This document shows positions 18,487 to 61,426 of a stretch of 64,000 nt of DNA, piece after piece. Each line of letters starts with the position of its first letter. Positions within the stretch are counted from its first letter, which is position 1. The position numbers and the translations under genes are program-made. A model generated the notes under the pieces. It was given only the letters and a program-made list of their open reading frames with translations, searched no databases and was not told where the DNA came from. The DNA comes from Candidatus Oxydemutatoraceae bacterium (lineage in GTDB: Bacteria > Pseudomonadota > Gammaproteobacteria > Poriferisulfidales > Oxydemutatoraceae), in assembly GCA_965220085.1 (NCBI GenBank), contig CBDCOZ010000003.1:1184001-1248000 (forward strand). Reading direction: 5' to 3'.

Positions 18487-19540
18487 CTATCGCAACGGGC
18501 CTTCAAGGAAGAGGCGCAAGCGCAAGCGCACAGGCACATGGTCCTCTGTCACCTGAGCGCCTATGCTACACAGCGGCCCTTCCGATGCGGGCGCGGAAAA
18601 CTGATCCTTGAAAGAAACGCAGGCGCGTACGTACTTGTCCACATCGGCCGGGAAGGGCGCGAAGTTCGAGGCAGTGACAGCGGTTGCCGCAACGCCCGCT
18701 ATGTCAGCATAGGCATCGGCTGCGGGAGCGCCATTGGCGGGCGCATCGGCCTGTTGCCACTGCCAACTCAGGGTGTCGACATTGATGCCGTTGTTCTCCG
18801 TCACACCGGCGATGGAAGCTCTGATCATGCCCGTGGCGGTGGTGACTGTGGGTGCGCCGCTGGCGGCCATCTGCGTGGATGCGCTCACCAGGTTGATGGT
18901 CATGATGGCGGAACTTCTATCAGACTGAAATATAAAAGTAAAGTCGGTATAGCCAGTGGCGATGGAAATAGCATCGGCAGGCGGGGCGTATCTGAAACGA
19001 AGATGATTCCCAGGGGGATTAGCGAAATCAAATGTGCCAAAGAAGGCAGTCTGTTCATGCAAACCCACATTGTCAGCAAGATCCCCGCCATCCCCTCTGG
19101 TCAAGGTGCCGCGATCAGGATAGGTTTCAAAGTACAGCGAGGTGTCCTGGGGGAAGCCGGGGAAGTCGGCCAATACGAAAAGGTGGCTGCCGCCAAGGGG
19201 GACATTAACGCTGCTGTCTTGGGCGGTTTGAGCGTTCGCCTGGGTTGCGCCCAATGTCAAAGACAATGCCAGCAGGCAACGCATGGCGCATCCGACCACG
19301 GTGCGGCCGGCGCCTGCCGCCCGCGCGAACGACGGGCGGACCACAACAGACCGCAACCGCAACAACAATCCGCGCACAGCCGGTGCGCACGGTCGCTTTG
19401 CGGATGGCGGGTTGCGATATGCGAGTGATAAAAAACGAGTGAGAAGGCGATACAGCGAAACGCCGACAATCCCCTTACCTACAAGGCTAGGGGGAGGGGG
19501 GGGGGGGGGGGGGGGTAGTGTTAAAAATTTGTCGATTCAT
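18487..19540 (-). CDS. Secreted Ig-like protein, FLEGPLR family member 1, frameshifted in a poly-C tract (OFF)
   Basis: AGGAGG-N7-ATG at 19540; G20 run at 19496-19515 gives MNRQIFNTTPPPPPPSP*. One base fewer joins the open frame through ...LGATQANA-Q to VRLRLRLFLEGPLR*. Confidence 0.75.
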
Positions 19541-20018
19541 ATCTAATCCTCCTATGACAAGTAAACGCGATAGTCTAACCATTGCCGGCACTATCACAAA
19601 TGTAAGCCATCCTATGGCACGTAAATGTGGTTGGGTAATCATTGTCGGCACTATATCACAAACATAAGCCATCCGCAAGTGCCTTTGGATTCTAGCCTCA
19701 CCCCTTTCCGGCTCAGGGTATTTGCACTATATATAGGCTGGCTACGAGGATGGTGTGCTATGCCGATGCGGGGTATTTACACTATATATATAGAGGATAT
19801 GGCGGCATTGCGACCCTCGCCGCTATTGCCATGCGAAAACAGCGACTAAACACCGCTGTTTACAACAGTTTCCGCTGTTGCCGGACAGAGCCAAGTACAT
19901 AAGCCCCGATATTCCCCGATATTTCATGACCGCTCAAGTTGTGTTAGTATGGCATTCTGTGTAGAATAAGCAATGCATGATTATCTGCATTGCAAAAAAG
20001 ATTAAGGATTAAACGGTT

Positions 20019-20137
20019 TGCCTGGCGGCTATAGAGCACTGGTACCACCCGATCCCATTCCGAACTCGGAAGTGAAACGGTGCATCGCCGATGGTAGTGT
20101 GGGGTCTCCCCATGCGAGAGTAGGACACTGCCAGGCG
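20019..20137 (+). rRNA. rrf: 5S rRNA (unlinked)
   Basis: TGCCTGGCGG...CCCGATCCCATTCCGAACTCGGAAGTGAAAC...CGCCGATGGTAGTGTGGGGTCTCCCCATGCGAGAGTAGG...CTGCCAGGC; canonical 5S with paired ends. Confidence 0.97.
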
Positions 20138-20177
20138 TTTATTCCGCTTCCCGTTGTTATTTCCCGGTACTACCGCC

Positions 20178-20924
20178 ATGGGCTTTGATATTGAAACTTT
20201 TCTCGTCGCAGGCACCGCTGTCACGGGCTTGTTGCTCGTCATCGCGCGCTTCGCGAATACCGCCCGCCCGCGCTGGTTGTTTGATACGGCGCAGTCGTTT
20301 TTCCCCGTACTGGCGATTGTTCTGATTCTGCGCAGTTTCATCATTGAGCCGTTTAGAATCCCCTCGGGCTCCATGTTGCCGACATTGGAAATCGGCGATT
20401 TCATCGTTGTCAATAAGTTTTCCTACGGCGTAAAACTGCCGCTGCTACATTGGCAGTTGCTAGAAGTCGGCGCGCCGCAACGCGGGGATGTGGTCGTCTT
20501 CCGTTATCCGCACGACCCATCGCAGGATTACATCAAGCGCCTGATCGGCTTGCCGGGCGATCACATCGTCTATAAAGACAAACAACTGACTATCAACGGC
20601 AGAAAAATCGCGGCGGACGATGCTCGCCCGTATCCGCAGCCCGAGACCTATCCGCTGATCATGGAGCGTCGCAGCGAACAGTTGGAAGGCGCCGCTCACG
20701 ATATTCTCTTGACACCGGCGCGCCGGCAGCACGACGGGGAGTGGACGGTACCCGCGGACTCCTACTTCGTGATGGGAGACAATCGCGACAACAGCAACGA
20801 CAGCCGCGTTTGGGGGTTTGTCGCCAAGGAGCATTTGGCCGGCAAGGCATTTTTGATTTGGATGAGTTGGGACTACGATGAAAACAACATCAAGTTCCCC
20901 CGCATATGGACGAGTATCCGCTGA
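20178..20924 (+). CDS. lepB: Signal peptidase I
   Basis: IPSGSMLPTL, DYIKRLIGLPGD and GDNRDNSNDSR motifs. Confidence 0.96.
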   Translation: MGFDIETFLVAGTAVTGLLLVIARFANTARPRWLFDTAQSFFPVLAIVLILRSFIIEPFRIPSGSMLPTLEIGDFIVVNKFSYGVKLPLLHWQLLEVGAPQRGDVVVFRYPHDPSQDYIKRLIGLPGDHIVYKDKQLTINGRKIAADDARPYPQPETYPLIMERRSEQLEGAAHDILLTPARRQHDGEWTVPADSYFVMGDNRDNSNDSRVWGFVAKEHLAGKAFLIWMSWDYDENNIKFPRIWTSIR

Positions 20925-21583
20925 TGCCCGACTTAAAAGACTTGCTCCCGGCGGAGTTTTTTAAGACCCCCCAATTCAATACGGCGATTACCCACCAGAG
21001 CGCGGGTTTTCCTAACAACGAACGGATGGAATTTCTGGGCGATGCCGTATTGCAGCTTGCCATCAGCGAAACGCTCTACCTCTCGAGCGCAAAAGACGAA
21101 GGGTATCTGACAAAGTTTCGCGCCTATCTGGTATGCAAGGACACGCTGTCCGAGTTGGCGCAGGAATGTCGGCTGGGCGATCTGATCAAGCTCGGCCCCG
21201 GCGAGAACCGAGACAACATCACGAAATCTATTCTGGGCAATGCGTTTGAAGCGATTATTGCCGCGGTGTATCTGGCGCACGGTTGGGATACGGTGCGAGG
21301 ATTTATCGAGACGGTTTATGCGAGCCGTCTGGAGCACATGCCGACCTTGGAAAAACTCAAGGATGCCAAAACAAGATTGCAGGAGTATTTGCAATCGCTG
21401 GGACACGCCTTGCCGGTCTATGCGCTGACAAAGAGCGGCCCCGGCAACGCGCCTGTGTTTGAGGCGCGGTGCAGCATCGACGAGTTGGATGTCGTGACCC
21501 GCGGGCGCGGAGCGACCAGACGCGCCGCCGAGCAGGAAGCGGCTGTCCGCGCGCTGGAGTTGTTGCAAGCCGGACTGTCGTGA
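20924..21583 (+). CDS. rnc: Ribonuclease III
   Basis: NERMEFLGDAVL signature and dsRBD (DAKTRLQEYLQ...AEQEAA); operon position. Confidence 0.96.
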   Translation: MPDLKDLLPAEFFKTPQFNTAITHQSAGFPNNERMEFLGDAVLQLAISETLYLSSAKDEGYLTKFRAYLVCKDTLSELAQECRLGDLIKLGPGENRDNITKSILGNAFEAIIAAVYLAHGWDTVRGFIETVYASRLEHMPTLEKLKDAKTRLQEYLQSLGHALPVYALTKSGPGNAPVFEARCSIDELDVVTRGRGATRRAAEQEAAVRALELLQAGLS

Positions 21584-22431
21584 GCGCGAAGCAACAATGC
21601 GGAAGCGTGGCCATCATCGGCGCTCCCAACGCCGGCAAATCCACATTATTTAACCGCTTGATCGGACGGCATCTGTCGGCTGTGACGCACAAGCCGCAGA
21701 CGACCCGTCGCAATATCAGAGGGGCGCTGACCGAAGGGGCGGCGCAGATGATCTTTATTGATACGCCGGGCATCCACAAAGGGCGGGCGGGCGCGCTCAA
21801 TCGCGCGCTCAATCGCAACGCAAAAAGCGTCCTCTACGATGTCGATGTCATCATCCTGATCGCCTCGTGCCGGCGCTGGACGCGACAGGATCAGGACATA
21901 CACGACTTGATTGCCGATATTCCGGCGCCGTGCCTGCTAGCGCTCAATAAGATCGACCTGCTTGCGGACAAATCCGAGATGTTGCCGCTGATAAAACAGA
22001 TGGACGAGCGCAACCGCTTTGATGCGATTATTCCGATTTCGGTTTTGCGCAACAAAGCGATTGCCGCGCTGAAACAGGAGATCGTATCTCGCCTGCCGCA
22101 ACGGCCGTTTCTGTTCGGCGACGATACGATCAGCGACCAGAGCGATGAGGTGATCATCGTTGAATTGATTCGCGAGAAACTGATGCAATACTCTCACGGC
22201 GAGTTGCCGTATATAACCGATATCCGAGTGGAATCCATTGAGCAAAAGGGGCCGCGGCGCAATATCACCGTGAACATTCTGGCTGACAAACCCGGGCGCA
22301 GAGCGATATTGATTGGCGCCGGCGGCTCCAAATTGAAACTGATCGGTTCCACCGCCCGCAAACGGATAGAGCAGGCGCTCGGCGCCCGCACATACCTCGA
22401 CTTGCGGGTGAAAGACAAGAAGACCGCATGA
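21580..22431 (+). CDS. era: GTPase Era
   Basis: GAPNAGKST, DTPG and NKID motifs plus KH domain; GTG start overlapping the rnc stop. Confidence 0.95.
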   Translation: MSAKQQCGSVAIIGAPNAGKSTLFNRLIGRHLSAVTHKPQTTRRNIRGALTEGAAQMIFIDTPGIHKGRAGALNRALNRNAKSVLYDVDVIILIASCRRWTRQDQDIHDLIADIPAPCLLALNKIDLLADKSEMLPLIKQMDERNRFDAIIPISVLRNKAIAALKQEIVSRLPQRPFLFGDDTISDQSDEVIIVELIREKLMQYSHGELPYITDIRVESIEQKGPRRNITVNILADKPGRRAILIGAGGSKLKLIGSTARKRIEQALGARTYLDLRVKDKKTA

Positions 22432-22437
22432 GAGCAG

Positions 22438-23169
22438 ATGATTGCTTTTCAAGACGAACCGGCCTTTGTCATTCATAAACGCGCCTATAACGACCGCAGC
22501 GATCTGGTGCAAATTTTAACGCCCGGACACGGGCGGCTGACCGTGATTGCCCGCTCGTCCGTGAAGATGATCGGCAAAGTGCTGCAACCGTTTATCCCGG
22601 CCAATGTCAGTTGCGGCGGCAGAGGGGAGATACCGAGCTTGCGCCAGTTTGAGCCCGAAGGCGCACAGATACTGACCGCTGCCGAACAGCGTATCGTCGG
22701 CATGTATGTGAATGAGTTGCTGACCAAGTTGACGCCTTTTCGCAGCGCATCCCGCACTTTGTTTCATTTGTATTCCCGTTGCATAACCGCTATCGGCGGC
22801 ATGTCCGACATGCGCGCCGACCTCGCCGCAGTGGAAAAGATACTGCGGAACTTTGAAGCGGATTTGCTTGAGTTGGTCGGCAACGGTTTGCAGTTGCAAT
22901 ACGAAAGCGGCGGCATGCAAGCGCTACAACCCGACGCATATTACCGCTACGATATTGACCGCGGAGCGGTGCGAGCGGGCGGCGGTGATGCGAGCGAATT
23001 CGTATACACCGGCGCGGCTCTGATTGCGCTGCGCGAACGTCTCACAACCTGCGATCGCCCGTTGATGACCGAAGCAAAGCAACTGTTGCGGCAGGTCATC
23101 GACTGCCACCTCAACGGCAAAGCGATAGAGACCCGCGCCCTGTTTTCGTATTTGCAAAACCTGACTTGA
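22438..23169 (+). CDS. recO: DNA repair protein RecO
   Basis: AFVIHKRAY, LQPF and YVNELL motifs; synteny era-recO-pdxJ. Confidence 0.9.
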   Translation: MIAFQDEPAFVIHKRAYNDRSDLVQILTPGHGRLTVIARSSVKMIGKVLQPFIPANVSCGGRGEIPSLRQFEPEGAQILTAAEQRIVGMYVNELLTKLTPFRSASRTLFHLYSRCITAIGGMSDMRADLAAVEKILRNFEADLLELVGNGLQLQYESGGMQALQPDAYYRYDIDRGAVRAGGGDASEFVYTGAALIALRERLTTCDRPLMTEAKQLLRQVIDCHLNGKAIETRALFSYLQNLT

Positions 23170-23227
23170 AAGCGGGGGGCGATTAGCAGTACTATGGGTA
23201 ACTTCGCCGTAATATGACCGGATAAAC

Positions 23228-23959
23228 ATGGTTCAAACGCACATCAATGCCGCTTTATGGGTCAATATCGACCACGTCGCGACCTTGCGCGAGGCGCGCA
23301 AGACGCCATACCCCGACCTCGCCGAGGCAATCGCGCAAGCCGAAGCCGGCGGCGCTTCCGGCATCACGATGCACTTGCGCGAAGACCGCAGGCATGTGCG
23401 CGATGACGATGTGCGCATGGCGCGGGAGCGAGTGACGACAGCGCTGAATCTTGAGATGGCGGCAACCGATGAGATGGTCGCCATCGCGGTTGCGACAAGG
23501 CCGGATGAGTGTTGCATCGTGCCGGAGAAACGCGAGGAATTGACGACCGAAGGCGGTTTGAATGTCCGCGCACAGTTGGCGCAAATCAGCGATGCGTGTC
23601 GCGCATTGAAGGCCGCCGCAATCAAGGTATCGCTGTTCGTAGAAGCCGATCGGCGAACGCTGGATGATGCGGCGGCGGTCGGGGCGGACATCGTTGAGCT
23701 GCACACCGGCCAATACGCGCTCTGCGAGGGCGAAGCGCAACAAGCCTGTTTGCGGCGGATAGCGGATGCCGCCGAATATGCCGCCGGGCTCGGTTTGCAA
23801 GTCAATGCCGGGCACGGCTTGCGGCGTGAAAATGTCGCCCCGATTGCCGCCATCACACAGATGACGGCGCTAAACATCGGTCACGCTGTCATCGCCGATG
23901 CCGTGTTCATGGGATTGCGCGAGGCGACCGCGGCGATGTATCGGGCGATGCAAGCATGA
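23228..23959 (+). CDS. pdxJ: Pyridoxine 5'-phosphate synthase
   Basis: VNIDHVATLREAR, HLREDRRH, TTEGG and NAGHGL motifs. Confidence 0.97.
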   Translation: MVQTHINAALWVNIDHVATLREARKTPYPDLAEAIAQAEAGGASGITMHLREDRRHVRDDDVRMARERVTTALNLEMAATDEMVAIAVATRPDECCIVPEKREELTTEGGLNVRAQLAQISDACRALKAAAIKVSLFVEADRRTLDDAAAVGADIVELHTGQYALCEGEAQQACLRRIADAAEYAAGLGLQVNAGHGLRRENVAPIAAITQMTALNIGHAVIADAVFMGLREATAAMYRAMQA

Positions 23960-24315: not shown

Positions 24316-24321
24316 TCCATA

Positions 24322-25497
24322 CCATTACCCGCGCTCGCGCTTCAATTCCGCCTTCAGCGCGCAGAGTTGCTCCAGCGCTTCCTTCGGGCTCAGGCGGTCG
24401 GGGTCCAGTTGCTCCAGCGCCTGTTGCAACCCGCCATCGGTTTGCGGACGGGCGGACTCGGTGTCGTATCATGACCCGCGCTCGCGCTTCAATTCCGCCT
24501 TCAGCGCATAGAGTTGCTCCAGCGCTTCCTTCGGGCTCAGGCGGTCGGGGTCCAGTTGCTCCAGCGCCTGTTGCAACCCGCTATCGGTTTGCGGCCGGTC
24601 GGGCTCGGTGTCGTATCATGACCCGCGTTCGCGCTTCAATTCCGCCTTCAGCGCGCAGAGTTGCTCCAGCGCTTCCTTCGGGCTCAGGCGGTCGGGGTCC
24701 AGTTGCTCCAGCGCCTGTTGCAACCCGCTATCGGTTTGCGGACGGGCGGACTCGGTGTCGTATCATGACCCGCGCTCGCGCTTCAATTCCGCCTTCAGCG
24801 CATAGAGTTGCTCCAGCGCTTCCTTCGGGCTCAGGCGGTCGGGGTCCAGTTGCTCCAGCGCCTGTTGCAACCCGCTATCGGTTTGCGGCCGGTCGGGCTC
24901 GGTGTCGTATCATGACCCGCGTTCGCGCTTCAATTCCGCCTTCAGCGCGCAGAGTTGCTCCAGCGCTTCCTTCGGGCTCAGGCGGTCGGGGTCCAGTTGC
25001 TCCAGCGCCTGTTGCAACCCGCTATCGGTTTGCGGACGGGCGGACTCGGTGTCGTATCATGACCCGCGCTCGCGCTTCAATTCCGCCTTCAGCGCGCAGA
25101 GTTGCTCCAGCGCTTCCTTCGGGCTCAGGCGGTCGGGGTCCAGTTGCTCCAGCGCCTGTTGCAACCCGCTATCGGTTTGCGGCCGGTCGGGCTCGGTGTC
25201 GTATCATGACCCGCGCTCGCGCTTCAATTCCGCCTTCAGCGCATAGAGTTGCTCCAGCGCTTCCTTCGGGCTCAGGCGGTCGGGGTCCAGTTGCTCCAGC
25301 GCCTGTTGCAACCCGCTATCGGTTTGCGGCCGGTCGGGCTCGGTGTCGTATCATGACCCGCGCTCGCGCTTCAATTCCGCCTTCAGCGCATAGAGTTGCT
25401 CCAGCGCTTCCTTCGGGCTCAAGCGGTCGGGGTCCAGTTGCTCCAGCGCCTGTTGCAACCCGCTATCGGTTTGCGGCCGGTCGGGCTCGGTGTCGGC
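24322..25497 (-). repeat. Eight tandem 147-bp copies of the mutS 3' end (seven lie beyond the stop codon)
   Basis: Units begin at 24322, 24469, 24616, 24763, 24910, 25057, 25204 and 25351; each encodes ...[18 protein letters not shown](Y/C)[11 protein letters not shown] followed by a stop. Confidence 0.97.
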
Positions 25498-28264: not shown

Positions 28265-29546
28265 ATGCAGTTTTCACCGGAACCACAGGATGCCCTGACA
28301 ACGTACGATTATATTAATACCCCCCCCCTTGTACGAGAGGCATCCGGTGGCGCGGCTTAGCCTCTGGTCGCTCGCTCTGCTCGCCCTGATTGCAATCTGC
28401 GCTCAGGCACAGGCGCAGACCGCACCCGTCGCTGGGGACAACACCATAGAGGTGTACGTCACCGCAACCGCCGACAATCCCTACGTCTTCGAGAAGAACG
28501 ATTTTCCCTTTGAGGATGACGACAAGCACGCCTTTGCCAGGGTGGATCTGGGCAGTGTGCCCACCGTCGGCACCCTGAGGACGGGCGCTGTCGCCTCAGC
28601 GATGGGGCATCAATTTTATGCGAATCCCACCGGCAGTCAGAGCGGGTTTTCCGACCTTACCTACTACCCGGCGCCGGGGCAGAGCCCGACCGAGGGCTAC
28701 GCCAGTTTCACATTCGGCGTACGCGATTCCTCCGGTGCGCTCAGCCATGCTCTTGCCACCATCACCATAGATCTGGTGCGGGCGCCGCAACTGCCGGCAA
28801 CCGGCGCGCCCGCGGTCACGGCGCCCATGGGCAGCACAGCCTGGCACGAGGATGTGACCCTGACGGCATCCATCGGCACTGTCAGAGATGCCAATGGCAT
28901 TAGCACCGACACCATAGCATGGCAATGGGAACATGCCGCCGCTCCCGCCAGCGGCATCCCGGCCACCAGCGCATACGCCGCCATAGCCGGGGCCGACGAC
29001 GACACATTCACGCCCCTGCAGGATCATGTGGGCGACTATGTGCGGGTATGCGTCTCTTTCATGGACAACTTCATGGTGCCCGGCGACGAGCGGCGATGCA
29101 CCGCGGGCAATGTCATCGTCAATGTCAATGATGCGCCCGCCAGCGCCGATGCCTTTGTCAATGTGCCGATTACCGCAACCGCCGATATGCCGTTCTACTT
29201 TAGCGCCGGGCATTTTGCGTTCATGGATGAGGATGTCGGCGACAATGCGGACTTTGAAAGCGTCAGCATAAGCCTCCCCGGCAGGAGCAACATTGCCGGC
29301 ACATTGCGCCTCGGCGCCGAGCCGGGGTTTGCAAGAGGCACCGCGACCAGCGTTAACTTTGACGACATAGCCACGCTCAACTTTTATCCGAACACGGACC
29401 AGCAGGCTACCACCGCCTATTCCACATTCTCATTTGCCGTGTACGATGGCGCGACGTACAGCGAAATCCACACCATGACCATCAACCTGGTGCCTGCCGA
29501 CATACGCTTGCGGCTGCGCCTCTTCCTGGAAGGCCCGTTGCGATAG
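28265..29546 (+). CDS. Secreted Ig/cadherin-like protein, FLEGPLR family member 2, frameshifted in a C9 tract (OFF)
   Basis: GAGGA-N9-ATG at 28265 stops after 31 codons with C9 (28320-28328). C8 would join ORF 28329-29546, which has signal peptide ...ICAQAQA-Q and ends DIRLRLRLFLEGPLR*. Confidence 0.75.
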
Positions 29547-52233: not shown

Positions 52234-54513
52234 ATGTTAGCCAAAGACCTTGAACAAACCCTAGGGCGGGTATTTGACAGAGCCCGGCAGGAATACCACG
52301 AATACATCACCACCGAGCATCTGTTGCTGGGCTTGATAGAAAACACCCATGTCTCGCAAGTGCTCGATGCCTGCGGCGCCGATACCGCCGCGCTGAGCGA
52401 TGAGTTGAAAACATATATCAATGATACGACACCGAAGACGCGCACGGACGGCAAGCCCGATGTGCAGCCGACGGTGGGCTTTCAGCGCGTTTTGCAACGC
52501 GCGATATTTCATGTGCAGTCGCTTCCCGGCGTGAGCGACGAAGAAGTAAAGAGCGAGGATGTGCTGGTGGCGATATTCAACGAGCGCGATTCGCAATCGG
52601 TGCGACTGTTGGCGGCGCACGATGTCGAGCGTCTGGATGTCGTCAGTTATCTGTCACACGGTCTGGCCAAAGAAGAAGGCGCGAAGAAGAGCGCGGACAG
52701 CGACGAAAAGAGCGAAGAGGAAGAGCGACCGCTCGAACAGTTTTGCGAAAACTTAAACGACAAGGCGCGCAACGGCAATACCGACCCCTTGGTCGGTCGC
52801 CAGACCGAGGCGGACAGGACGATACAGGTGCTGTGCCGCCGCCGCAAAAATAATCCGCTGTATGTCGGCGAGGCCGGCGTCGGCAAAACCGCTCTGGCCG
52901 AAGGCTTGGCACAGAAAATCATCGACGGGGAGGCGCCCGATGCGCTCAAGGACACGGTAATCTATGCTCTGGACCTCGGCGCTCTGGTCGCCGGAACCAA
53001 GTATCGAGGCGACTTTGAAAAGCGTTTGAAGGGGGTTATAAAAGACATACGGGCGCACGGCCATGTCATCCTCTTCATCGATGAGATTCATACGCTGGTC
53101 GGCGCGGGGTCGGCCGCCGGCAATGCGCTGGATGCGGCCAATCTGCTTAAGCCGATGTTGCAGTCCGGTCAGTTGCGCTGCATCGGCGCGACAACGTATC
53201 ACGAATACCGCAGTTTGTTTGAGAAAGACCACGCGCTGCAGAGACGTTTTCAGAAGATAGATATCAAGGAACCGTCCGCCGACGAAAGTTACCGGATATT
53301 GCTGGGCCTCAAACAGCGGTTTGAGAAACATCACAATGTGCGTTATTCAAAACAGAGTTTGCGCATGGCGGTTGATTTGTCGGTGCGCTATCTGAACGAC
53401 CGCCGCTTGCCGGATAAAGCGATCGATGTGATGGACGAAGCGGGGGCGTATATGCGCATCCGCTTTCCGGCCAAGCAAAGCAAGACGATACGCAGCACCG
53501 ACATAGAGCGCACGGTGTCGCAGATGGCTCAGGTTCCTCTGCACCGTCTCAGCGAGGAGGTCGGCAAAAACCTGCTGACATTGCCGCGCAATATCAAGCG
53601 GGTTGTCTTCGGTCAGGACGAGGCGGTCGATACGGTGACTGATGTCATCAAGATGTCGCGACTCGGCTTGCGCGAACAGGAGCGATTGATCGGCGCGTTT
53701 TTATTGGTCGGGCCGACCGGGACGGGCAAGACCGAGTTGGTCAGGCAACTGGGCTTTCACATGGGCGTGAAGCTGGCGCAATACGATATGTCCGAATACA
53801 TGGAACGCCATGCGGTGTCGCGGCTGATCGGCGCGCCTCCCGGCTATGCCGGCTTTGATCAGGGCGGACTGCTGACGAATGCCGTGGCGGAATCTCCGCA
53901 CTGCATCGTCCTGCTGGACGAGATAGAAAAAGCCCACCCCGATATCCTCAACATTTTGTTGCAGATAATGGACCACGGCACACTGACCGATACCAACGGG
54001 CGGGCGGTGGATTTCCGCAATGTGTTGCTGATGATGACGAGCAATGCCGGCGCGGAAGAGATGAGCCGCAGCGGGATAGGTTTTTCCAAGCAGGATAACA
54101 GCGGCGATTGGCAAGGAGTCATCAAGCGCATTTTCACGCCCGAGTTTCGCAATCGCTTGGATGCCGTCGTCGGCTTTCGGCGGCTGGATAAAGAAGCGAC
54201 TCTGCAAGTGGTGGACAAGTTTCTGTTGCAGTTTCAGGCGCAGTTGGAAAGCAAGAAGATGGAAGCGCATTTTTGCGACACGGTGCGGGAGTGGCTGGTC
54301 AAGCACGGCTTTGACGAAGAGTTGGGAGCGCGTCCGATGCGGCGGCTGATTGAAGCGGAGATGAAAAAGCCGGTGCTGGATAAGATTCTCTCGTTGCCGA
54401 ATCGCAACAAAGGGGTGCAAATTCGGTATCGTATTGAGAACGACAAGATTGAAGCGGAAGTCTCCGTAAGCAACAAGACGCCGATGAAATCCTCCAAGCG
54501 CGTTGTCAACTGA
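52234..54513 (+). CDS. clpA: ATP-dependent Clp protease ATP-binding subunit
   Basis: Two AAA modules ([16 protein letters not shown]) and RLIGAPPGY; follows clpS. Confidence 0.97.
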
Positions 54514-54662
54514 GACGATAGGATTGATTAAAGGGGCACAGGTTCGCTACCGTACTGAGAATGACAAGATTGAAGCGGAAGCCGCCGCAGACAGCAAGAC
54601 GCCGATGAAATCCTCCAAGCGTGTTGTCAACTGAGACGGTGGGTGAGACGATAGGATTGACT
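54409..54662 (+). repeat. Diverged 121-bp duplication of the clpA 3' end
   Basis: GACAAGATTGAAGCGGAAG...AAGACGCCGATGAAATCCTCCAAGCG(C/T)GTTGTCAACTGAGACG occurs twice (54409-54529 and 54530-54662). Confidence 0.92.
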
Positions 54663-54851
54663 GCGATTTGCTTTCCGGGCTTCTATGCTTGACTCCGCCC
54701 GCCAACGATGACAGCCGGTTACTAAGGCGATGTTCCATCGCTATTTTCACATAGGGCAATAACTAGTGGGAGCGGTTAGAGACGCCGCTATGCTACGACA
54801 CTCAGCAAGGGGAATGTTGCTTGCGCTAAGCAAGGAGAAATGTCGCTCGCA

Positions 54852-55589
54852 CTATCGCAACGGGCCTTCCAGAAAGATGCGCAAGCGCATCCGTAATCCC
54901 GTGAAAACGCATTGACCGCCGACGAGGGGGGAGAGTCCGCCGTGCGGGGCTGAGGAGCGAGTCGCGCCTTGTCGGATATGTGACGGTTTCGCGCATCTGC
55001 ATTCAATCGCGCCAATGGTGTTGATGGTTGCCGGAATCAAACCGCGCGTCCCGTCCGGGTCGCAGTTGTAAACGTATCGCGAATCGCTTCCGTCCTCCGG
55101 TCTTTGCGGAAACTCCAAGTTGGGGCCAAAAGCGTCGTAGCAATTGCCGCCGGAAGAGTATGTGCACTGACTGCCCGTGCTACCGCTGGCAAGGTCCCAA
55201 TGCCCCACCAGACACCGGCTGAGAGAGATAACGGATTGCCAACCTCTCTCCTCGCATTTTTCTTTCGGCATCACGCATCTGCGATCCAACGTCACTTTTC
55301 CCGTCGGACAAGTTTTCACGCATTCGTTTCCGTCACGGAATTCGTCCGTTGCGCAGGATTGTGCTTGGGCCTGAGCGGATACGATGAAAAAGGCGAGCAG
55401 AAAGAGCGACCGGAGGCCGCACCTGCTTAACTTAATGTGGAGGGGGGGGGGGGGGGGGCAAACGGATGCTAACGTGCTTGCACGGAATTGTGCGGCGTTA
55501 AAAAGCGCGGTGCGGGTTTTCAACCTTCCGCAGAAGATTTGAATCGTGCGTCCGCGAATGAAAGAGTTCGGAGTCATATTGCAAATCAT
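54852..55589 (-). CDS. Secreted Cys-rich protein, FLEGPLR family member 3 (ON, G17 tract)
   Basis: Shared leader, poly-Pro from G17 (55442-55458), signal peptide AQAQA-Q, Cys-rich passenger, ends GLRMRLRIFLEGPLR*. Confidence 0.8.
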   Translation of the reverse strand: MICNMTPNSFIRGRTIQIFCGRLKTRTALFNAAQFRASTLASVCPPPPPLHIKLSRCGLRSLFLLAFFIVSAQAQAQSCATDEFRDGNECVKTCPTGKVTLDRRCVMPKEKCEERGWQSVISLSRCLVGHWDLASGSTGSQCTYSSGGNCYDAFGPNLEFPQRPEDGSDSRYVYNCDPDGTRGLIPATINTIGAIECRCAKPSHIRQGATRSSAPHGGLSPLVGGQCVFTGLRMRLRIFLEGPLR

Positions 55590-56152
55590 ATCACAAACCT
55601 CTATAAAAAATTCACAAACAACTGAGTGTTGTTTGTGCTCTTATTACCGTGCCTCATTAAATGCCGTTTGCGTACACAGAAGTCCACACTATATACGATT
55701 TGCACCCGCCTTGCAACTGGCGCATTTATCTTTGTAACGCCTACATTATATAGACTATTCCTAAGCCTTGTGCTTGCACTGGTCACACGCTCCCCTCGCA
55801 GGAGAAGCGCAGAGTCCGCTATAACTCCGAGCTTTTTTGAAAGTTGCAGAATTCGATCCACAGGCGATGGATGATGCAGTGAAGAGAAAGCTTCGTACTT
55901 GCGCCGACCACACGCTCCCCTCGCAGGAGAAGCGCAGAGTCCGCTATAACTCCGAGTTTTTTTGACAGTCGCAGAATTCGAGCTACAGGTGGCGGACGAT
56001 GCAAAGAGTGTTACTTGCACCATGCAAGGGGTGAGTGTTACTCGCACTAGGCAACGGAGAGTGTCGCTTGCGCCAGGCAAGGGGAGCGTGTCACTCGCAC
56101 TCGGCAAGGGGTGAGTGTTGCTTGCGCTAAGCAAGGAGAAATGTCGCTTGCA
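55590..56152. repeat. Conserved inter-cassette spacer (palindrome, 125-bp units, six ~26-bp units)
   Basis: Homologous to 57713-57853 plus 58935-59533, and to 60909-61321. Confidence 0.9.
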
Positions 56153-57712
56153 CTACCGCAACGGGCCTTCAAGAAAGAGACGCAGGCGCAAGCGTATATT
56201 GGCTCTGACCACCGGCGCAACGGAAGTCCAACAACGCATCTCGCTACCGCCGTCATCATCATCAAAGGCGGCGCAGACACGGAGGAGTTTGCCCGCCTGC
56301 CCCTGCATGGGAGCGAAGGTCGCAGAGGCAGCGCCGGGGATATTCGTGATATCGTCGGGCAACTGCGGTGCGCGGGCGAAAAGGCACTCAACAAACTGCC
56401 GATAAGTTGAGTCGGTGTTTCCGATGCACACCAAATTCTCGTCAATTTCATTAAACATGTGAGTGGCGAGAGACCGCGAAGGTCCGCTTGTTTGGAGACC
56501 GTCAAAAATTTGCTGAACGGCATCCAGCATGTCGCCATAGTTTTCGTCGCGGACGAGATAGGACACAAACGCGGTCAGCACGGCATCTCCGATGTCCATA
56601 AGGCCCTGATGCGTCTGTGCGTCCCTTGCGGCGACTATCCCGTCGTATATTTCCTTCGCCGTTCCCGTGAGGGTGGCGGTGGAGACGGTCGCAGTTTCAA
56701 CTTCCTGCCACTGCCAGACGGGGGCGAAGGCAGTGATGTCATTGGCATCGTCTATCGTGCCGATGGATGCGGTCAGTGTGCTGCCCACATTGGGCCCGTC
56801 CATGGTCAGGTCAGCGCCGTCCGCCGCCGTCACCGCCGGTTCGCCGCTGGCTACAGCGTTGACCTTCGCAACGGAAGTCCAGCAACGCGTCTCGCTGTTG
56901 CCGGCATCATCATCAAAGGCGACGCAGACACGAAGGAATTTGCCCGCCTGCGCCTGCATGGGAGCGAAGGCCTCAGCGGTAGCGCCAGGGATATTCGTGA
57001 CATCAGGCATCTGCGGAATTTGAGAGAACAAGCAATGCGTGTATGTCTTTCTGAAAATGTTGCCGCTGCCGACGCACGGCGAGCGGTTAACCCCGCTGGC
57101 CTGCTCCACCACTTCAAAAAGGGCTCCGCCGCTGGCGAAAACTTGTCCGGAAGCGTCATTGGCAAGCGCTCCAAGCGAATGGGTCTCGTAATAGTCGTCG
57201 TCGCGCAGAAGGTAAGACACAAACGCGTCTCGATACGCCATTGCCGCCGTCGCCAATATCGTGTTGGGCGAGGAAAACCACGCCGTGAACCCGTCATAAA
57301 CCTCCTTCGCCGTTCCCGTGGTCGCAACTTCAACCTCCTGCCACTGCCAGACGATGGCGCCATCGGCATCGGCTATCGTGCCCGTAGTTGCGGTCAGCAC
57401 ACTGTTCACATTGGGCCCGTTCGTGGTCAGGTCGGTGCCGTCCGCCGCCGTGACCGCCGGTTCGCCAGCAACGGCAGTGTTGGTCTGCGCCTGCGCTTGA
57501 CCGCAGACGATGATTAGGGCGAGCAGAAAGAGCGACCGGAGGCCGCACCTGCTTAACTTAATGTGGCAAAGGGGGGGGGGGGGGGGGGGGGGGTAAACGG
57601 ATGCTAACGTGCTTGCACGGAATTGTGCGGCGTTAAAAAGCGCGGTGCGGGTTTTCAACCTTCCGCAGAAGATTTGAATCGCGCGTCCGCGAACGAAAGA
57701 GTTCAGAGTCAT
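56153..57712 (-). CDS. Secreted protein with two Ig-like repeats, FLEGPLR family member 4 (ON, G23 tract)
   Basis: G23 at 57571-57593 is in frame; two GEPAVT...WQWQ...RVC repeats; ends NIRLRLRLFLEGPLR*. Confidence 0.85.
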   Translation of the reverse strand: MTLNSFVRGRAIQIFCGRLKTRTALFNAAQFRASTLASVYPPPPPPPLCHIKLSRCGLRSLFLLALIIVCGQAQAQTNTAVAGEPAVTAADGTDLTTNGPNVNSVLTATTGTIADADGAIVWQWQEVEVATTGTAKEVYDGFTAWFSSPNTILATAAMAYRDAFVSYLLRDDDYYETHSLGALANDASGQVFASGGALFEVVEQASGVNRSPCVGSGNIFRKTYTHCLFSQIPQMPDVTNIPGATAEAFAPMQAQAGKFLRVCVAFDDDAGNSETRCWTSVAKVNAVASGEPAVTAADGADLTMDGPNVGSTLTASIGTIDDANDITAFAPVWQWQEVETATVSTATLTGTAKEIYDGIVAARDAQTHQGLMDIGDAVLTAFVSYLVRDENYGDMLDAVQQIFDGLQTSGPSRSLATHMFNEIDENLVCIGNTDSTYRQFVECLFARAPQLPDDITNIPGAASATFAPMQGQAGKLLRVCAAFDDDDGGSEMRCWTSVAPVVRANIRLRLRLFLEGPLR

Positions 57713-57820
57713 ATCACAAACCTCTATAAAAAATTCACAAATAACTAAGCGTTATTTGCGTACATATCTTCCTATATCCCGCGAGCAACTAAGTGTTGTT
57801 TGCGTGCACAGAAGCCCACA

Positions 57821-58879
57821 CTATACACGATTTGCACCCGCCTTGCAACTGGCTGTATGATGCCAGTACATATTGGAAACTTTGGGCAAATATTGTGTAA
57901 TTTGTGCCATAGGTGTTTGGAGCCTCAATCCATAATGTGGTCGTTGGGTATTAAACCATAGCAGGTAGTCTATCATACGCTCATTGAATTCCCGAATATC
58001 GGTCAGCAACAAGCCCTCTTCAAACTCCACAAACTCTTCCTGGAGCGTGCGGTTAAAGCGTTCATTGAATGCGTTCATCTTCGGACATTTGGGATACGTG
58101 TAGCAGTGCCGGATACCTTGCTCTTGCAGGCAGCGATCAAACGCGCCGCAGAACTCGGAGCCGTTGTCGGTGAGCACTTGCTCTATCTTGGCGGGGAACA
58201 CTTCCATCATCAGCTTCATAAAGAACTCGGCGGCGATGCTGTTGCCACGAGGGACGCCGATAGCAAAGCCAAACCGGCTATGCAAATCTACGGCCGTGAA
58301 CAGATAGCGACGCTGACCTTGAATAAACCGTTGCACGGTATCCATAGCGATGCAATGCCCGATACGCTTTGCATTGAAACCCTTTTCAAGACGCTCCTTG
58401 CGCTTGCTTTGCGGTGTGCGTTGCCGACGCGGTTTTGCGGGCACCCAGCGCATCTTATCGGCTTCGCCGGCAATCAGTCGCGCGATGGTGCGCGGCTTGG
58501 GACAACGCAAGCCGCGCTCGTCACACCACGGTTGAATCAGCAGGTATATCTTGGGTGCGCCGTAGGGATAGTTTTCGCGGTGTCGCCGAATCTCGGCGAT
58601 AATCTCCTCAGGCCAGTTGCGCCGGCGTGGCTGGCGCGGGCAAGTGCTCTGATTGATTAAGCCGTTAATGCCATAAAGCCGATATTGTCTCCGCCACTCA
58701 TAGAGTGATGATTTGCTGATGTGGTAAGCGTCCATGCTGGCTTTTATGTTGTGGTTCTCCCATAATATAAGGGCTTCAAGTTTCTGTTTTGCTTTATAGC
58801 TCATAGTTGCCTCGTCTATTGAAAAAGCAGCTATTTTATAGAAACCTTTGATGCCGTGGCCGATGTGTTGATATTGCAT
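57821..58879 (-). CDS. IS481-family DDE transposase
   Basis: HTH, then IAMDT, VLTDNGSEF, NERFNRTLQEEF and RPH motifs; the stop codon lies outside the element. Confidence 0.92.
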   Translation of the reverse strand: MQYQHIGHGIKGFYKIAAFSIDEATMSYKAKQKLEALILWENHNIKASMDAYHISKSSLYEWRRQYRLYGINGLINQSTCPRQPRRRNWPEEIIAEIRRHRENYPYGAPKIYLLIQPWCDERGLRCPKPRTIARLIAGEADKMRWVPAKPRRQRTPQSKRKERLEKGFNAKRIGHCIAMDTVQRFIQGQRRYLFTAVDLHSRFGFAIGVPRGNSIAAEFFMKLMMEVFPAKIEQVLTDNGSEFCGAFDRCLQEQGIRHCYTYPKCPKMNAFNERFNRTLQEEFVEFEEGLLLTDIREFNERMIDYLLWFNTQRPHYGLRLQTPMAQITQYLPKVSNMYWHHTASCKAGANRV

Positions 58880-58934
58880 GTCGGCTACGTTTGTTGTTGA
58901 AGCCAAGAATCCAGAATGTTTCTGGCATTATGCA
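57854..58934 (-). mobile_element. IS481-family insertion sequence (1081 bp)
   Basis: Imperfect terminal inverted repeats TGTATGATGCCAGTACATATTGGA / TGCATAATGCCAGAAACATTCTGGA; absent from the homologous spacers near 55716 and 61045. Confidence 0.9.
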
Positions 58935-59000
58935 CCAGCGCATTTGCCTGTGGCAATGCCTGCATTATATAGACTATTCCTAAGCGTTGTACTTGCGCCG

Positions 59001-59340
59001 GTCACACGCTCCTCAGCGGGGGAGGCGCAGAGTCCGCTATGACTCCGAACTTTTTTGAAAGTTGCAGAGCCCGAGCCACAGGCGATAGACGATGCAGTGA
59101 AGAGAAAGCTTCGTGCTTGCGCCGGTCACACGCTCCTCAGCGGGGGAGGCGCAGAGTCCGCTATGACTCCGAACTTTTTTGAAAGTTGCAGAGCCCGAGC
59201 CACAGGCGATAGACGATGCAGTGAAGAGAAAGCTTCGTGCTTGCGCCGGCCACACTCTCCTCGAGAGAGAGTCGCAAAGTCCGAGCCACAGGCGATGGAC
59301 GATGCGGTGAAGAGAAAGCTTCGTGCTTGCGCCAACTACA
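59001..59340. repeat. 124-bp tandem units within the inter-cassette spacer
   Basis: Unit starts at 59001, 59125 and 59249. Confidence 0.9.
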
Positions 59341-59533
59341 CTTCCTCTCTGGTGCGCTTGCGGAGATAGTGCGAGGAACGTACCGGAGTAACTACCGCCA
59401 GTCAGCCCCCAAGGAAGCATGTGTGCAAGTCCCGCGAAGGAATTGCTTCCCGCTACCGCAACGGAGAATGTTACTTGCACCATGCAAGGAGTGAGTGTTA
59501 CTCGCACTACCGCAAAGGAAGGTGTCACTTGCA

Positions 59534-60908
59534 CTACCGCAACGGGCCTTCCAGGAAGATGCGCAACCGCAAGCGCAAACTGCCGGGCACAACACGGGCG
59601 GCGACGGAGCAGAGCGTCTCGCTGACCGGCATCGGATGGCTGTCCATGAAACTTGCGCAGACTCTTATGTATTGTCCCACCTGCTCCTGGCCTGGGGTGA
59701 ATATGGTGGTGGTGGCATCGGTGATGGCGGAGTAGTCGTTATCCGCCGGGGTGCCGGAGTCCGGGGCAACGGCCTGTTGCCATTGCCACATCAGGGTGCT
59801 GCCATCTATGCCGTTAGGTTCGGTTATGCCTCCTACGCCAGTAGACAGCCGGGTGCCCTCGGCGTAGGTCGGGTTCTCTGCAGTGGTGACCGGGATTATG
59901 CCAGGTCTGCCAGAGGCGGCGACCTGAGCCGCCACCACCAGACGAATGCTGGCTATGGCGTTGTTGGTGCTGGTTTTGTTGTCGGTGCCATCGCTGCCAT
60001 CGTCCACCACATTGAAGTTGAAAGAGGTGTAAGCGTCGCCAAGGTCGTCGGGGTCGTTGGGCTCCTGGCCTGATTCCGGGTAATAGGTCAGTTCCCTGGC
60101 GGTCAGTTGGGCCACAGTTATTTCCATTGTGGGAACATCGGCGTTGGTCAGGACTGTGCCATCCAGAGCCATAGTGCCGCGGAATGGCAATGTTTGTACG
60201 ATGACGGCAGCCAGCATATCGTCATCGGCATCGGTGAGCGGGAAGTCGGTTGCCTTGAATATGTATGGGTTGGCGGCATTGGCGTTGACATTTACCGTGA
60301 GCGCTCTTGTGGTGAATAAATTGCTTGCCGTCGGCTTGTCATTGATGTTGGCCACGGCGGTGGCTATCTGCAGGCATCGCATCTCCGAGTTGGGGGTGGT
60401 GGCCATATCCATGAACGATGCGCAGACCTGCAGAAACTTGCCCACCTCATCATCGCCCGGAATGAAAGCGGCATTGGTCGCGCCGGCTATGGCGGTGTAG
60501 GTGCCGCCGTTGGCGGTGGCCGCGCTCCATTGCCAACTGAATGTGCCCAAGCCATCGGTGTCGGCTATGGCGGTGGAACCGTTGCCGCCGTTGGCAGTGA
60601 TGGCGGAGTCCTCAGTGGGGGTGTTGCCGCTGGCGTAGGTGACGGCGGGTGTGCCGGTGGCCGGGCTGTTGCTCTGCGCTTGCGCCTGAGCGGATAAAAT
60701 GAAAAATGTGAGCAGAAAAAGTGACCGGAAGCCGCACCCGCTTAACTTAATGCGGAGGGGGGGGGGGGGGGGGGGGGTAAACGGATGCTAACGTGCTTGC
60801 ACGGAATTGTGCGACGTTAAAAAGCGCGGTGCGGGTTTTTAACCTCCCGCAGAAAATTTGAATCGCGCGTCCGCGAATGAAAGAGTTCGGAGCCATATCA
60901 CAAATCAT
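59534..60908 (-). CDS. Secreted Ig/cadherin-like protein, FLEGPLR family member 5, frameshifted in a G21 tract (OFF)
   Basis: Leader MICDMAPNSFIRG... terminates just after the tract (60757-60777). G20 or G23 would join the open frame ...FFILSAQAQA-Q to GSLRLRLRIFLEGPLR*. Confidence 0.85.
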
Positions 60909-61321
60909 ATCACAAACCTCTATAAAAAATTCACAAATAACTAAGCGTTATTTGCGTACATATCTTCCTATATCCCGCGAGCAACTAAGTGTTGTTTGCG
61001 TACACAGAAGCCCACACTATACACGATTTGCACCCGCCTTGCAACCAGCGCATTTGCCTGTGGCAATGCCTGCATTATATAGACTATTCCTAAGCGTTGT
61101 ACTTGCGCCGGTCACACGCTCCTCAGCGGGGGAGGCGCAGAGCCCGCTATGACTCCGAACTTTTTTGAGAGTCCGAGCCACAGGCGGTGGACGATGCAAA
61201 GAATGTTACTTGCACTAAGCAACGGAGAATGTTGCTTGCGCTCAGCAAGGGGTGAGTGTTGCTTGCACTACCGCAAGGGGCGAGTGTTACTTGCACCAGA
61301 CAAGGGTGAGTGTTACTTGCG

Positions 61322-61426
61322 CTACCGCAACGCCCCTTCAAGAAAGATGCGCAACCGCAACAGCAAGCGCAAGGGGCGCACACGAGCGGCGACAGAGCAG
61401 AGCGGGGTCGCGCGCGCCCGGCGCAT
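61322..61426 (-). pseudogene. Tail-only remnant of a FLEGPLR family gene
   Basis: MRRARATPLCSVAARVRPLRLLLRLRIFLEGALR* matches the end of member 5 (LCSVAARV...) and is followed by a full spacer. Confidence 0.75.

Follow-up and report, generated by a model that had tools for sequence, protein, structure and literature searches.

The window, a stretch of 64,000 nt from a Candidatus Oxydemutatoraceae genome, contains six sites with one and the same protein end. Sequence inspection showed that all six close with the tail (L/I)RLRLR(L/I/V)FLEGPLR-stop, the remnant with an FLEGALR variant (Table 1), and the tail that the original prediction had assigned to five genes and a remnant is present as described. 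The passengers differ, also as predicted, and fall into three types: Ig-like (WQW…RVC), cadherin-like (NVNDAP…TINLV) and Cys-rich with a weak furin-like match. The signal peptides claimed earlier end in A-x-A|Q in genes 1-4, and so does that of gene 5, which lies behind a tract of 21 C. Gene 5 is out of frame at this tract, because the upstream ATG (60908) sits in another frame. A longer open frame of gene 1 reaches 19377. Slippage-prone poly-C tracts precede nearly half of the ~217 tagged genes of the genome. On the other side of the coding sequences, tandem arrays of 26-27 nt in the window have the stop codon inside their first unit, and some tandem arrays elsewhere in the genome re-use the 3′ half of the tag.

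Table 1. Tagged genes, associated repeats and the acceptor gene (window positions, except for the acceptor)
Feature	Position	Strand	Description
Gene 1 (P0031)	18487..19284	-	265 aa from MRCLL…; signal peptide, then cadherin-like and Ig-like modules; a flexible linker leads to the tag
Gene 1 tag	18487..18531	-	14 codons and stop; protein end …VPVRLRLRLFLEGPLR*
Gene 1 poly-C tract	19496..19515	- (G on + strand)	20 nt, upstream of gene 1
Gene 2	28329..29546	+	405 aa; signal peptide, cadherin-like/Ig-like/cadherin-like modules
Gene 2 tag	29502-29546	+	protein end …ADIRLRLRLFLEGPLR*
Gene 3	54852..55589	-	245 aa; Cys-rich passenger
Gene 3 tag	54852-54896	-	protein end …GLRMRLRIFLEGPLR*
Gene 3 poly-C tract	55442-55458	-	17 nt, within 5′ leader
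Gene 4	56153..57712	-	519 aa; pair of insert-bearing Ig-like modules
Gene 4 tag	56153-56197	-	protein end …ANIRLRLRLFLEGPLR*
Gene 4 poly-C tract	57571-57593	-	23 nt
Gene 5	59534..60787	-	417-aa open frame; signal peptide 3′ of poly-C tract
Gene 5 tag	59534-59578	-	protein end …GSLRLRLRIFLEGPLR*
Gene 5 poly-C tract	60757-60777	-	21 nt
Remnant	61322..61495	-	57-aa frame ending in …FLEGALR-stop variant; protein end …LLLRLRIFLEGALR*
Remnant tag	61322-61366	-	
Tandem units	54799..54854	.	26 nt; abut gene 3 stop, first unit overlaps last tag codons
Tandem array	56005..56155	.	27/53 nt; abuts gene 4 stop
Tandem array	61200..61332	.	26/54 nt; abuts remnant stop
Acceptor gene	G000:C3:469169-470137		322 aa, own signal peptide; secreted

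The six sites belong to a genome-wide set of ~217 tag copies found by a six-frame regular-expression search, and tagged open frames make up 20% of the 2.49 Mb genome. A degenerate coding pattern of the tag occurred 211 times in the genome and 0 times as a reversed control; its recurrence is far beyond chance. The tagged family is highly paralogous, and the tag is also found on giant passengers that are not of autotransporter type and on Cys-rich ones. The C-terminal position held in nearly all copies; in three proteins, however, the tag is N-terminal on a GGS linker, which is consistent with a position-independent docking strand. As a strand the tag is regularly amphipathic, its five Leu on one face opposing Arg, Phe and Glu on the other, and in an AF2 monomer of one tagged protein it was modelled as a strand paired in cis (pLDDT ~60-80).

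Purifying selection acts on the tag peptide. At positions outside the criteria by which copies were selected, P was present in 215, L in 217, R in 217 and the stop codon in 212 of the 217 copies, with all three stops in use (TAG 135, TAA 50, TGA 27). When copies were defined by a DNA HMM, the 12 core positions showed no amino-acid deviation in 210 of 228. Codon pairs in the tag were synonymous-different in 40.1% and residue-different in 12.0% of cases, compared with 5.1% and 90.6%, respectively, in the 14 codons upstream. Moreover, information content across the tag has a 3-base period and is gone within ~12 nt past the stop, genome-wide. Since synonymous codons and stops vary freely while residues are fixed, selection acts on the peptide; gene conversion or a DNA or RNA constraint is disfavoured, because neither gives fixed residues with free third positions. 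On the same codon evidence, a DNA-repeat origin of the tag was rejected.

No NCBIfam or Pfam sorting domain matched the tag at E≤10. The exact tag pattern was absent from 185,579 species genomes and from metagenome contigs; its narrowness meant that the dialects described below escaped it. The strings FLEGPLR, FLEGPL and LRLRLFLEG were not found in the literature searched, and FLEGPY, FLQGAY, VFLEGP and KVFLEG gave nothing related there.

A KVFLEGPY strand opens a C-terminal domain of ~215 aa at at least 121 loci, mostly in Bacteroidota, where the original prediction had placed similar strands at the start of domains. We found no Pfam or NCBIfam model for this domain, the body of which follows the pattern …PY…VDWVLVELR…HRNH…dockerin-like repeats. 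Its fold is XDoc-like, as in cellulosomal X-module-dockerin units. The domain profile gave weak matches to PDB dockerins (E 0.0026-0.9), and one of three Bacteroidota domains tested matched the PF00404 dockerin at 24.0 bits (cut-off 22.9). Profile-profile alignment with hhalign matched the tag to columns 2-14 of the domain with a probability of 82.8% (E 9.4e-6), and the tag fits the N-terminal strand pattern of the domain, Φ-x-Φ-x-Φ-[KR]-Φ-F-L-E-G-P-[YL]. FLEGP(L/Y), a turn motif of the intact domain, is invariant in the tags. As judged by these alignments, the tag corresponds to the first beta-strand of the KVFLEGPY domain, and the domain body that would follow in the same polypeptide is absent from all tagged frames.

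An HMM built from 61 Bacteroidota domains and run against the six-frame genome gave exactly one match (E 4.5e-21; next best 1.1), the gene that we call the acceptor. This match spans HMM positions 52-204 only; the mature N-terminus of the acceptor aligns directly after the strand columns and is gapped exactly over them. According to this alignment, the acceptor lacks exactly the strand that the tags carry. The Pfam dockerin model had no match in this genome's acceptor, whose Ca-binding repeats appear degenerate. The tag–strand match and a single secreted, strand-less copy of the domain support what had been proposed earlier, namely that the tag serves in sorting or assembly, for instance as a donor strand.

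The acceptor gene is genomically linked to type II secretion system (T2SS) genes and rhombosortase. It follows the T2SS operon at a distance of 3 kb and precedes rhombosortase (TIGR03902, 96 bits, cut-off 84) by 5 kb, lying between the operon and the genes for a 1369-aa GlyGly-CTERM protein and rhombosortase. Acceptor and rhombosortase are at most 11 kb apart in this genome (G000), G006, G007, G011 and G015, and GspL is no more than 8 kb away from the acceptor in G000, G006 and G010. The 1369-aa neighbour is an evident rhombosortase substrate ending in GGGGGGGG-hydrophobic-RRQRRYE, and no cohesin, or any family, was detected in it. All 18 of 18 family members have a T2SS, and no other general route for folded proteins is left; the genome has neither exosortase nor sortase, no TamA, TamB or TpsB, and a single BamA as its sole Omp85 protein. 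Slam gave no match in the genome in a search run without a positive control. Profiling the neighbours of tagged genes, from which the original prediction had expected a transporter or anchor, turned up recurrent untagged families of IS-like and coiled-coil tail-anchored types only, and these were rejected as partners. Outer-membrane protein candidates with a signal peptide and a C-terminal aromatic residue included nothing unusual.

Relatives extend the tag beyond the one genome in which it was first noticed. Fused, split-adjacent and split-dispersed states all occur within one bacterial family. In G001 the complete domain stands in cis on giant proteins (6/6 sites read). In G015 a gene ending in …KLFLEGPFR-stop is followed ~25 nt on by an acceptor gene, at two loci. 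The split and dispersed state is found in this genome and in G006, G010 and G011, and every one of these four has a separate tag dialect; the tag persists in three genera as differing dialects. Dialects are seen in genomes that carry acceptors: all 20 sites read in genus g3 are C-terminal, with 13-35 FLEGP matches against 0-2 in the control, and so are all 13 read in g2 (…RVFLEGAV…). FLQGA was rejected as a dialect, as it showed no enrichment. Standalone full-length acceptor copies lacked the strand in 8 of 8 cases, in five relatives. In 22 of 22 genomes of other families no acceptors were found, and motif counts there were near controls (0-4 FLEGP, 0-5 FLEGA). Tag-like counts without an acceptor match were obtained for G012, G014 and G018, two of which are 85% complete.

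We propose that the tail is a detached beta-strand, the first of an XDoc-like C-terminal surface-docking domain, which is whole and fused to its passenger in Bacteroidota and G001 and would be split in this genome. Each of the ~217 Sec-exported passengers would retain just the 14-residue strand, and one acceptor gene would provide the remaining ~290 residues. In the periplasm, the strand may insert into the strand-less acceptor by donor-strand complementation in trans; the rebuilt complex would then exit via the T2SS and be retained at the surface through the dockerin-like half of the module, possibly on the 1369-aa GlyGly-CTERM neighbour, lipid-anchored by rhombosortase. It seems to us rather probable, from sequence comparison, that the tag restores a docking module through strand complementation in trans. 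The data suggest a single shared adaptor for many proteins, a natural "tag and catcher" display. Against this proposal stand several observations: one acceptor gene would need to serve >200 tagged genes; the AF2 monomer pairs the tag in cis; genus g5 has acceptor homologs but yielded no tag, and G012, G014 and G018 have tag-like counts but yielded no acceptor; strand-less copies could function by themselves; and neither a Pfam dockerin match in the acceptor nor a cohesin in the 1369-aa neighbour was found. Tentatively, a family of host-associated gammaproteobacteria may have cut the XDoc-like module behind its first strand and so gained a natural split-domain display, in which 14 residues would be enough to direct any secreted protein to one shared adaptor, exported by the T2SS and retained on a rhombosortase-anchored scaffold. 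In this genome, on that view, the system would have taken over an acquired autotransporter family, lost every barrel and expanded to ~217 cargo genes, giving a cheap, combinatorial and phase-variable surface coat.

It is unlikely, on present evidence, that the tag comes from the domain strand but is now read otherwise, either as a signal for the T2SS (GspC/GspD, pseudopilus) or as a strand sticking to LPS or the outer membrane, with the strand-less proteins being independent T2SS cargo that folds without the strand. Such a reading would agree with the amphipathic, five-Leu face of the tag, with the presence of T2SS throughout the family and with genus g5 (G004, G009, G013), in which acceptor homologs are present and no tag was found with FLEGP, FLEGA and FLQGA patterns, nor in G013 with the tag profile. 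Strand-less acceptor copies could fold and act alone. However, it leaves unexplained why the standalone proteins miss just the tag-borne segment, why a tagged gene lies immediately upstream of the acceptor gene in G015, and why the turn motif of the intact domain is invariant in tags.

The history of the passengers brings in a further alternative. Foreign proteins ending in PF03797 barrels have signal peptides, poly-Pro leaders and passengers of Ig-like/cadherin-like type homologous to those found here and, by this homology, many passengers descend from classical autotransporters in which the tag took the place of the barrel. The genome has no PF03797 match above cut-off and no intact barrel; the weak match below cut-off is a 449-aa protein that we take to be FadL-like from its N- and C-terminal motifs. 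With 13 foreign barrels as queries, tblastn found only two remnants in the genome, one directly after a tag. A shared autotransporter barrel in trans was rejected, as there is no barrel in the genome, and so was descent of the tag from an adjacent barrel strand, since DNA homology starts only ~12 nt past the stop. The tag might instead mimic an outer-membrane beta-signal and engage BamA by beta-augmentation, inheriting the role of the last barrel strand (…YRLRARLRW), whose alternating pattern it shares. This is improbable, despite the autotransporter ancestry, the two remnants and a lone BamA: an outer-membrane beta-signal requires an aromatic residue at the C-terminus that is in register with the hydrophobic face, but the tag ends in Arg in 217 of 217 copies, with its Phe on the polar (Arg) face, lacks DNA homology to barrel sequence before the junction, and is carried by Cys-rich and giant non-autotransporter passengers and at three N-termini, and homology to the KVFLEGPY domain accounts better for the motif. 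That the tail is functionless, a truncated-domain relic or DNA-repeat by-product kept uniform by gene conversion, is scarcely credible: the stop codons within array units, the arrays re-using the 3′ half of the tag and the paralogy of the family would fit, but conservation ends shortly past the stop genome-wide, residues are fixed while third positions and stop identity are free, and the tag is kept in three genera with different dialects.

Among known systems, cellulosomal scaffoldins have XDoc (type II dockerin) modules (PDB 2b59_B, 4u3s_B, 4wi0_B, 5k39_B) that are alike in fold. However, the beta-sandwich half of the KVFLEGPY domain has no sequence-level relation to them, the hosts here are Gram-negative (Bacteroidota and Gammaproteobacteria), the module in this genome comes in two parts, a 14-aa strand and a body encoded apart from it, and the 1369-aa neighbour yielded no cohesin. 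If the proposal is true, it would assign a role to a C-terminal domain that lacks annotation and is widespread in Bacteroidota, and would extend cohesin–dockerin-type display to Gram-negatives with T2SS and rhombosortase. Rhombosortase and dockerin were not found together in the literature searched; "donor strand complementation" and "dockerin" co-occur in one general review.

Chaperone-usher and Bacteroidia type V pili use donor-strand complementation or exchange, in which each subunit is donor and acceptor and the product is a polymer. Here too, an alternating-hydrophobic short strand is proposed to complete the incomplete beta-sandwich of another polypeptide, and at the sequence level the acceptor is without one strand that the donors carry; but there would be many unrelated donors, one acceptor, and a docking module as product. 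From type Va autotransporters, the system has homologous signal peptides, poly-Pro leaders and passengers as well as barrel remnants, whereas the C-terminal PF03797 barrel is lacking, the linker and ~300-aa barrel being exchanged for a 14-aa tag.

GlyGly-CTERM/rhombosortase, PEP-CTERM/exosortase and LPXTG/sortase systems likewise relate a short C-terminal signal on many diverse secreted proteins to one partner gene, and here the proposed partner gene is also linked to rhombosortase and T2SS, the route shown for VesB (PMC6219818). Unlike these tripartite signals, the tag has alternating Leu/Arg without hydrophobic helix or basic tail, a difference already pointed out in the original prediction; it is also N-terminal in three proteins, and the partner proposed for it is part of a domain and no enzyme. 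If true, this would be the first natural sorting tag to act through completion of a shared adaptor's fold and not through cleavage or threading by an enzyme or channel. A 2.5 Mb genome could then afford ~217 surface proteins, because 14 residues would replace a ~215-aa domain or a ~300-aa barrel.

SpyTag/SpyCatcher and split GFP are laboratory constructs that pair a strand peptide of ~13-16 residues with a "catcher", covalently in the case of SpyTag. In contrast, the tag here would be natural, probably non-covalent and proteome-wide, and, if the proposal is true, would supply protein engineering with an orthogonal peptide/catcher pair that is ready for use.

In the best-fitting explanation, the C-terminal tail shared by secreted proteins in the window is a first strand that has become detached from an XDoc-like (X-module-dockerin) docking domain, and a single secreted acceptor common to them would complete that domain in trans. 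All six sites named in the original prediction, five genes and one remnant, indeed end in (L/I/V)RLR(L/I)FLEG(P/A)LR followed by a stop codon (6/6), and the passengers differ as described, with Ig-like WQW…RVC modules, cadherin-like NVNDAP…TINLV modules and one Cys-rich type all found. Signal peptides of the A-x-A-Q type had been assigned to all five genes. Genes 1–4 carry them, and gene 5 has one as well, but it lies immediately 3′ of a 21-C tract and the upstream ATG is in a different frame. The check for a known sorting domain, named in the same prediction, gave no sorting-domain match in Pfam or NCBIfam at E≤10.

The window corresponds to G000:C3:1184001-1248000, and the tag is abundant throughout this genome (2.49 Mb, 55.6% G+C, three contigs). 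A six-frame search found 275 F[LIVM]EG sites, 217 of them R-x-R-x-F-x-E-G copies, and a degenerate DNA pattern of the tag occurred 211 times genome-wide versus 0 for a reversed control. Tagged open frames have a median length of 426 aa (longest, 15,193 aa; 25/217 below 100 aa) and span 497,928 nt in total, which is 20.0% of the genome; of the 2,097 frames in a crude gene set, 175 terminate with the tag. Three proteins outside the window carry the strand N-terminally, in the order signal peptide, ~20-aa spacer, PLRLRLRVFLEGPLR, GGS linker and then either repeats, presumably pre-peptidase (PPC)-like, or a region with a TAYHC motif that we take to be trypsin-like. A coiled-coil family at 14 loci lacks a signal peptide and carries a membrane helix at the C-terminus, and 10/14 members are no more than two genes away from a tagged gene versus a background of 18%. 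A repeated element, …LRLRLFL(Q/E)DPCNNA(G/S)I, starts like the tag before another conserved sequence takes over, and may represent one end of a mobile element that targets or mimics tag DNA.

The original prediction also mentioned xKVFLEGPY strands that start domains in Bacteroidota proteins. This proved sound, as a KVFLEGPY coding pattern matched at least 121 loci, mostly from Bacteroidota and Ignavibacteriales among the matches listed. One conserved domain is present at 61 of the 80 sites with DNA, the remaining 19 being unrelated or truncated. Its layout is Φ-x-Φ-x-Φ-K-V-F-L-E-G-P-Y … PY … VDWVLVELR … HRNH … dockerin-like repeats, and the stop lies 189–231 aa after the Lys in 28/28 loci where a stop was reached, hence it is a C-terminal domain. 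Apart from one Dockerin_1 match in the tail, it is not represented by any Pfam or NCBIfam model. This widespread ~215-aa domain (L025–L104, loci in Bacteroidota and Ignavibacteriales) is predicted to adopt a confident XDoc-like fold (pLDDT 97).

An HMM built from the 61 domains and run on the six-frame translation of the genome gave a single significant frame of 322 aa (E 4.5e-21; next best 1.1). This body has a signal peptide, …LLSAHANAQ, and its mature N-terminus, RSMNTGLSDFIPADDPY…, aligns to the segment just past the strand of the intact domain; VDWVLV.LR and HHRNH are retained. With one body frame that starts past the strand, the genome therefore holds ~217 strands and one strand-less body. 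Tag and strand are homologous, and the domain is split. The earlier proposal of a donor strand completing the fold of a partner thus gains a candidate partner, and the 322-aa body may be complemented in this way by the tags of many proteins.

Body homologs occur in 13/18 genomes of the same family (f1) versus 0/22 genomes of other families. In one relative, G001, they lie within giant frames with the full domain and its strand in cis (…RVFLQGAY…) at 6/6 sites read, and standalone full-length copies in five other relatives all begin right past the strand (8/8). The tag itself differs between genera. In genus g3, 13–35 FLEGP matches per genome were counted versus 0–2 for the control, and the tag is C-terminal at 20/20 sites read. 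Genome G011 has FLEGPLR-stop at 15/15 sites, typically …(I/L)RVR(V/I)KVFLEGPLR-stop; tags of G015 read …KVFLEGPLQ-stop or …KLFLEGPFR-stop, and at two G015 loci the body gene follows ~25 nt downstream of a tagged gene. The variant of genus g2 is …RVFLEGAV… with 2–15 more residues, and it is C-terminal at 13/13 sites read (G006 and G010) in frames of up to 6,177 aa. FLEGA counts are elevated in g2 and in part of genus g4.

Several observations run against completion in trans by a shared acceptor. In the AF2 monomer of gene 1, a flexible linker leads to the tag, which with moderate confidence forms a strand pairing with something in cis. Genomes of genus g5 have bodies and no tag by the motifs tried; G012, G014 and G018 have tag-like counts and no body match. 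No dockerin match was found in the body of this genome and no cohesin in the 1369-aa protein encoded beside it.

Besides a detached strand selected as a peptide, the tail could be the product of a DNA repeat, since in this window the stop codon of tagged sites sits in the first unit of a 26–27-nt tandem array. This explanation fails genome-wide, where information content is zero before codon -3 and within ~12 nt past the stop. Within the tag it amounts to ~2 bits at the first two codon positions and 0.6–1.4 bits at the third. Positions not used in selecting copies are conserved (P 215/217, L 217/217, R 217/217, stop 212/217), and the stop codons are TAG (135), TAA (50) and TGA (27). A DNA HMM of the tag, which can also pick up broken copies, gave 228 copies, of which 210 have no residue change at 12 core positions, 12 have one and 6 have two or more. 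Among these copies, 40.1% of codon pairs in the tag are synonymous-different and 12.0% residue-different; for the 14 codons upstream the values are 5.1% and 90.6%. The information profile, the conserved unselected positions and the codon-pair figures together show that selection acts on the translated tag peptide.

Homopolymer runs of C or G that are 10 nt or longer number 86 genome-wide, versus 0 A/T runs of that length. Of the 86, 82 lie on the coding strand inside or just upstream of tagged frames, and a poly-C tract is present in 85 of the 188 tagged frames that reach 100 aa. Gene 5 is out of frame at its tract, and the tracts at tagged genes are probably slippage switches. Units of the arrays that follow some tags, in the window and on C3, measure 26–27 or ~56 nt; they re-use the 3′ half of the tag and its stop (…LEGPLR-stop-RE…), and a small TTGC…GCAA palindrome is part of them. 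A 361-aa open frame located between tagged genes 4 and 5 represents a paralog family of 31, of which 10 are within two genes of a tagged gene; from copy number and overall appearance we take it to be a transposase or integrase. A short frame repeats the last ~40 residues encoded by the 759-aa gene immediately before it, presumably ClpA-like, and looks like a partial 3′ duplication of that gene.

Positions of features in the window and elsewhere in the genome (G000; contigs C1 and C3)
Feature	Sequence	Position	Unit or length
Poly-C tracts in or before 5′ ends of tagged genes	window	19496-19515, 55442-55458, 57571-57593, 60757-60777	17-23 nt
Tandem arrays directly 3′ of some tags	window	54799-54854, 56005-56155, 61200-61332	26-27 or ~56 nt
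Further post-tag tandem arrays	C3	648633-648921, 1659713-1660489	
Tandem repeat between acpS and 3′ end of mutS	window	24323-25495	147 nt, eight copies, 96% matches
Long-period tandem array	window	85-541	61 nt
Long-period tandem array	window	11110-11493	107 nt
Long-period tandem array	window	58992-59283	124 nt
Open frame between genes 4 and 5	window	57821-58906	361 aa
Gene presumed ClpA-like	window	52234-54513	759 aa
Short frame, apparent partial duplication	window	54503-54634	
Strand-less body	C3	469169-470137	322 aa
N-terminally tagged proteins	C1	23868-25292, 36358-38001	
N-terminally tagged protein	C3	1171425-1173515	
Coiled-coil family, examples	C3	496566-498538, 2018313-2020767	
LRLRLFL(Q/E)DPCNNA(G/S)I element	C3	~359907, 734795, 739059, 773238, 833981, 1506417	

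A profile of the tag regions, searched against 5.8 billion proteins, retrieved proteins of this genome and 26 foreign proteins, every one of the latter from metagenome assemblies. These 26 share the signal peptide, a poly-Pro leader and Ig-like and cadherin-like modules, and the tag is present in 0/26; a precomputed column lists PF03797 for 11 of them, and the C-terminus of 13 is of autotransporter type, for example …RLQARLRW. The junction in the foreign proteins runs from …TINLVPP through a linker helix to the barrel, and in gene 2 from …TINLVPA to DIRLRLRLFLEGPLR and stop. Using the 13 foreign barrels, tblastn found only two barrel remnants in the genome; one belongs to a frameshifted gene whose leader is poly-C, and the other directly follows a tag remnant. 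In the DNA alignment, barrel homology begins only ~12 nt past the stop of the tag, and derivation of the tag from the adjacent barrel strand is therefore ruled out.

The genome encodes one BamA, two secretins, one TolC and a complete T2SS operon; in it, TpsB and TamB were absent and no PF03797 match exceeded the cut-off. In f1, PF03797 occurs in 0/18 genomes and GspL of the T2SS in 18/18; in the sister family f2 the figures are 11/11 and 0/11, and one f2 genome has 31 autotransporters. Rhombosortase was found in 17/18 genomes of f1, 0/11 of f2 and 0/22 outside f1. T2SS with rhombosortase and classical autotransporters are thus mutually exclusive between these two sister families of the order. 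The passenger of gene 1 has 64 matches in its own genome, and at E≤1e-5 none of the 40 relatives (G001–G040) has a homolog of it. Together, the passenger and barrel comparisons, the contrast between f1 and f2 and the lack of homologs in relatives show that an acquired autotransporter family lost its barrels in this genome.

Genomic position ties the acceptor gene to the surface route of T2SS and rhombosortase. This gene lies 3 kb beyond the T2SS operon, and directly after it is the gene of the 1369-aa protein, which ends in eight Gly, a hydrophobic stretch and RRQRRYE and has a near-threshold choice-of-anchor U domain; rhombosortase comes next (TIGR03902, 96 bits versus a cut-off of 84). In five genomes at most 11 kb separate the body gene from rhombosortase, and in three at most 8 kb separate it from GspL, although these genomes are kin and the counts are not independent. 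Tagged cargo and acceptor may both be exported by this route and held by a surface anchor. In Vibrio cholerae, GlyGly-CTERM proteins are described as being cleaved by rhombosortase, then lipid-modified and carried to the surface by the T2SS (PMC6219818).
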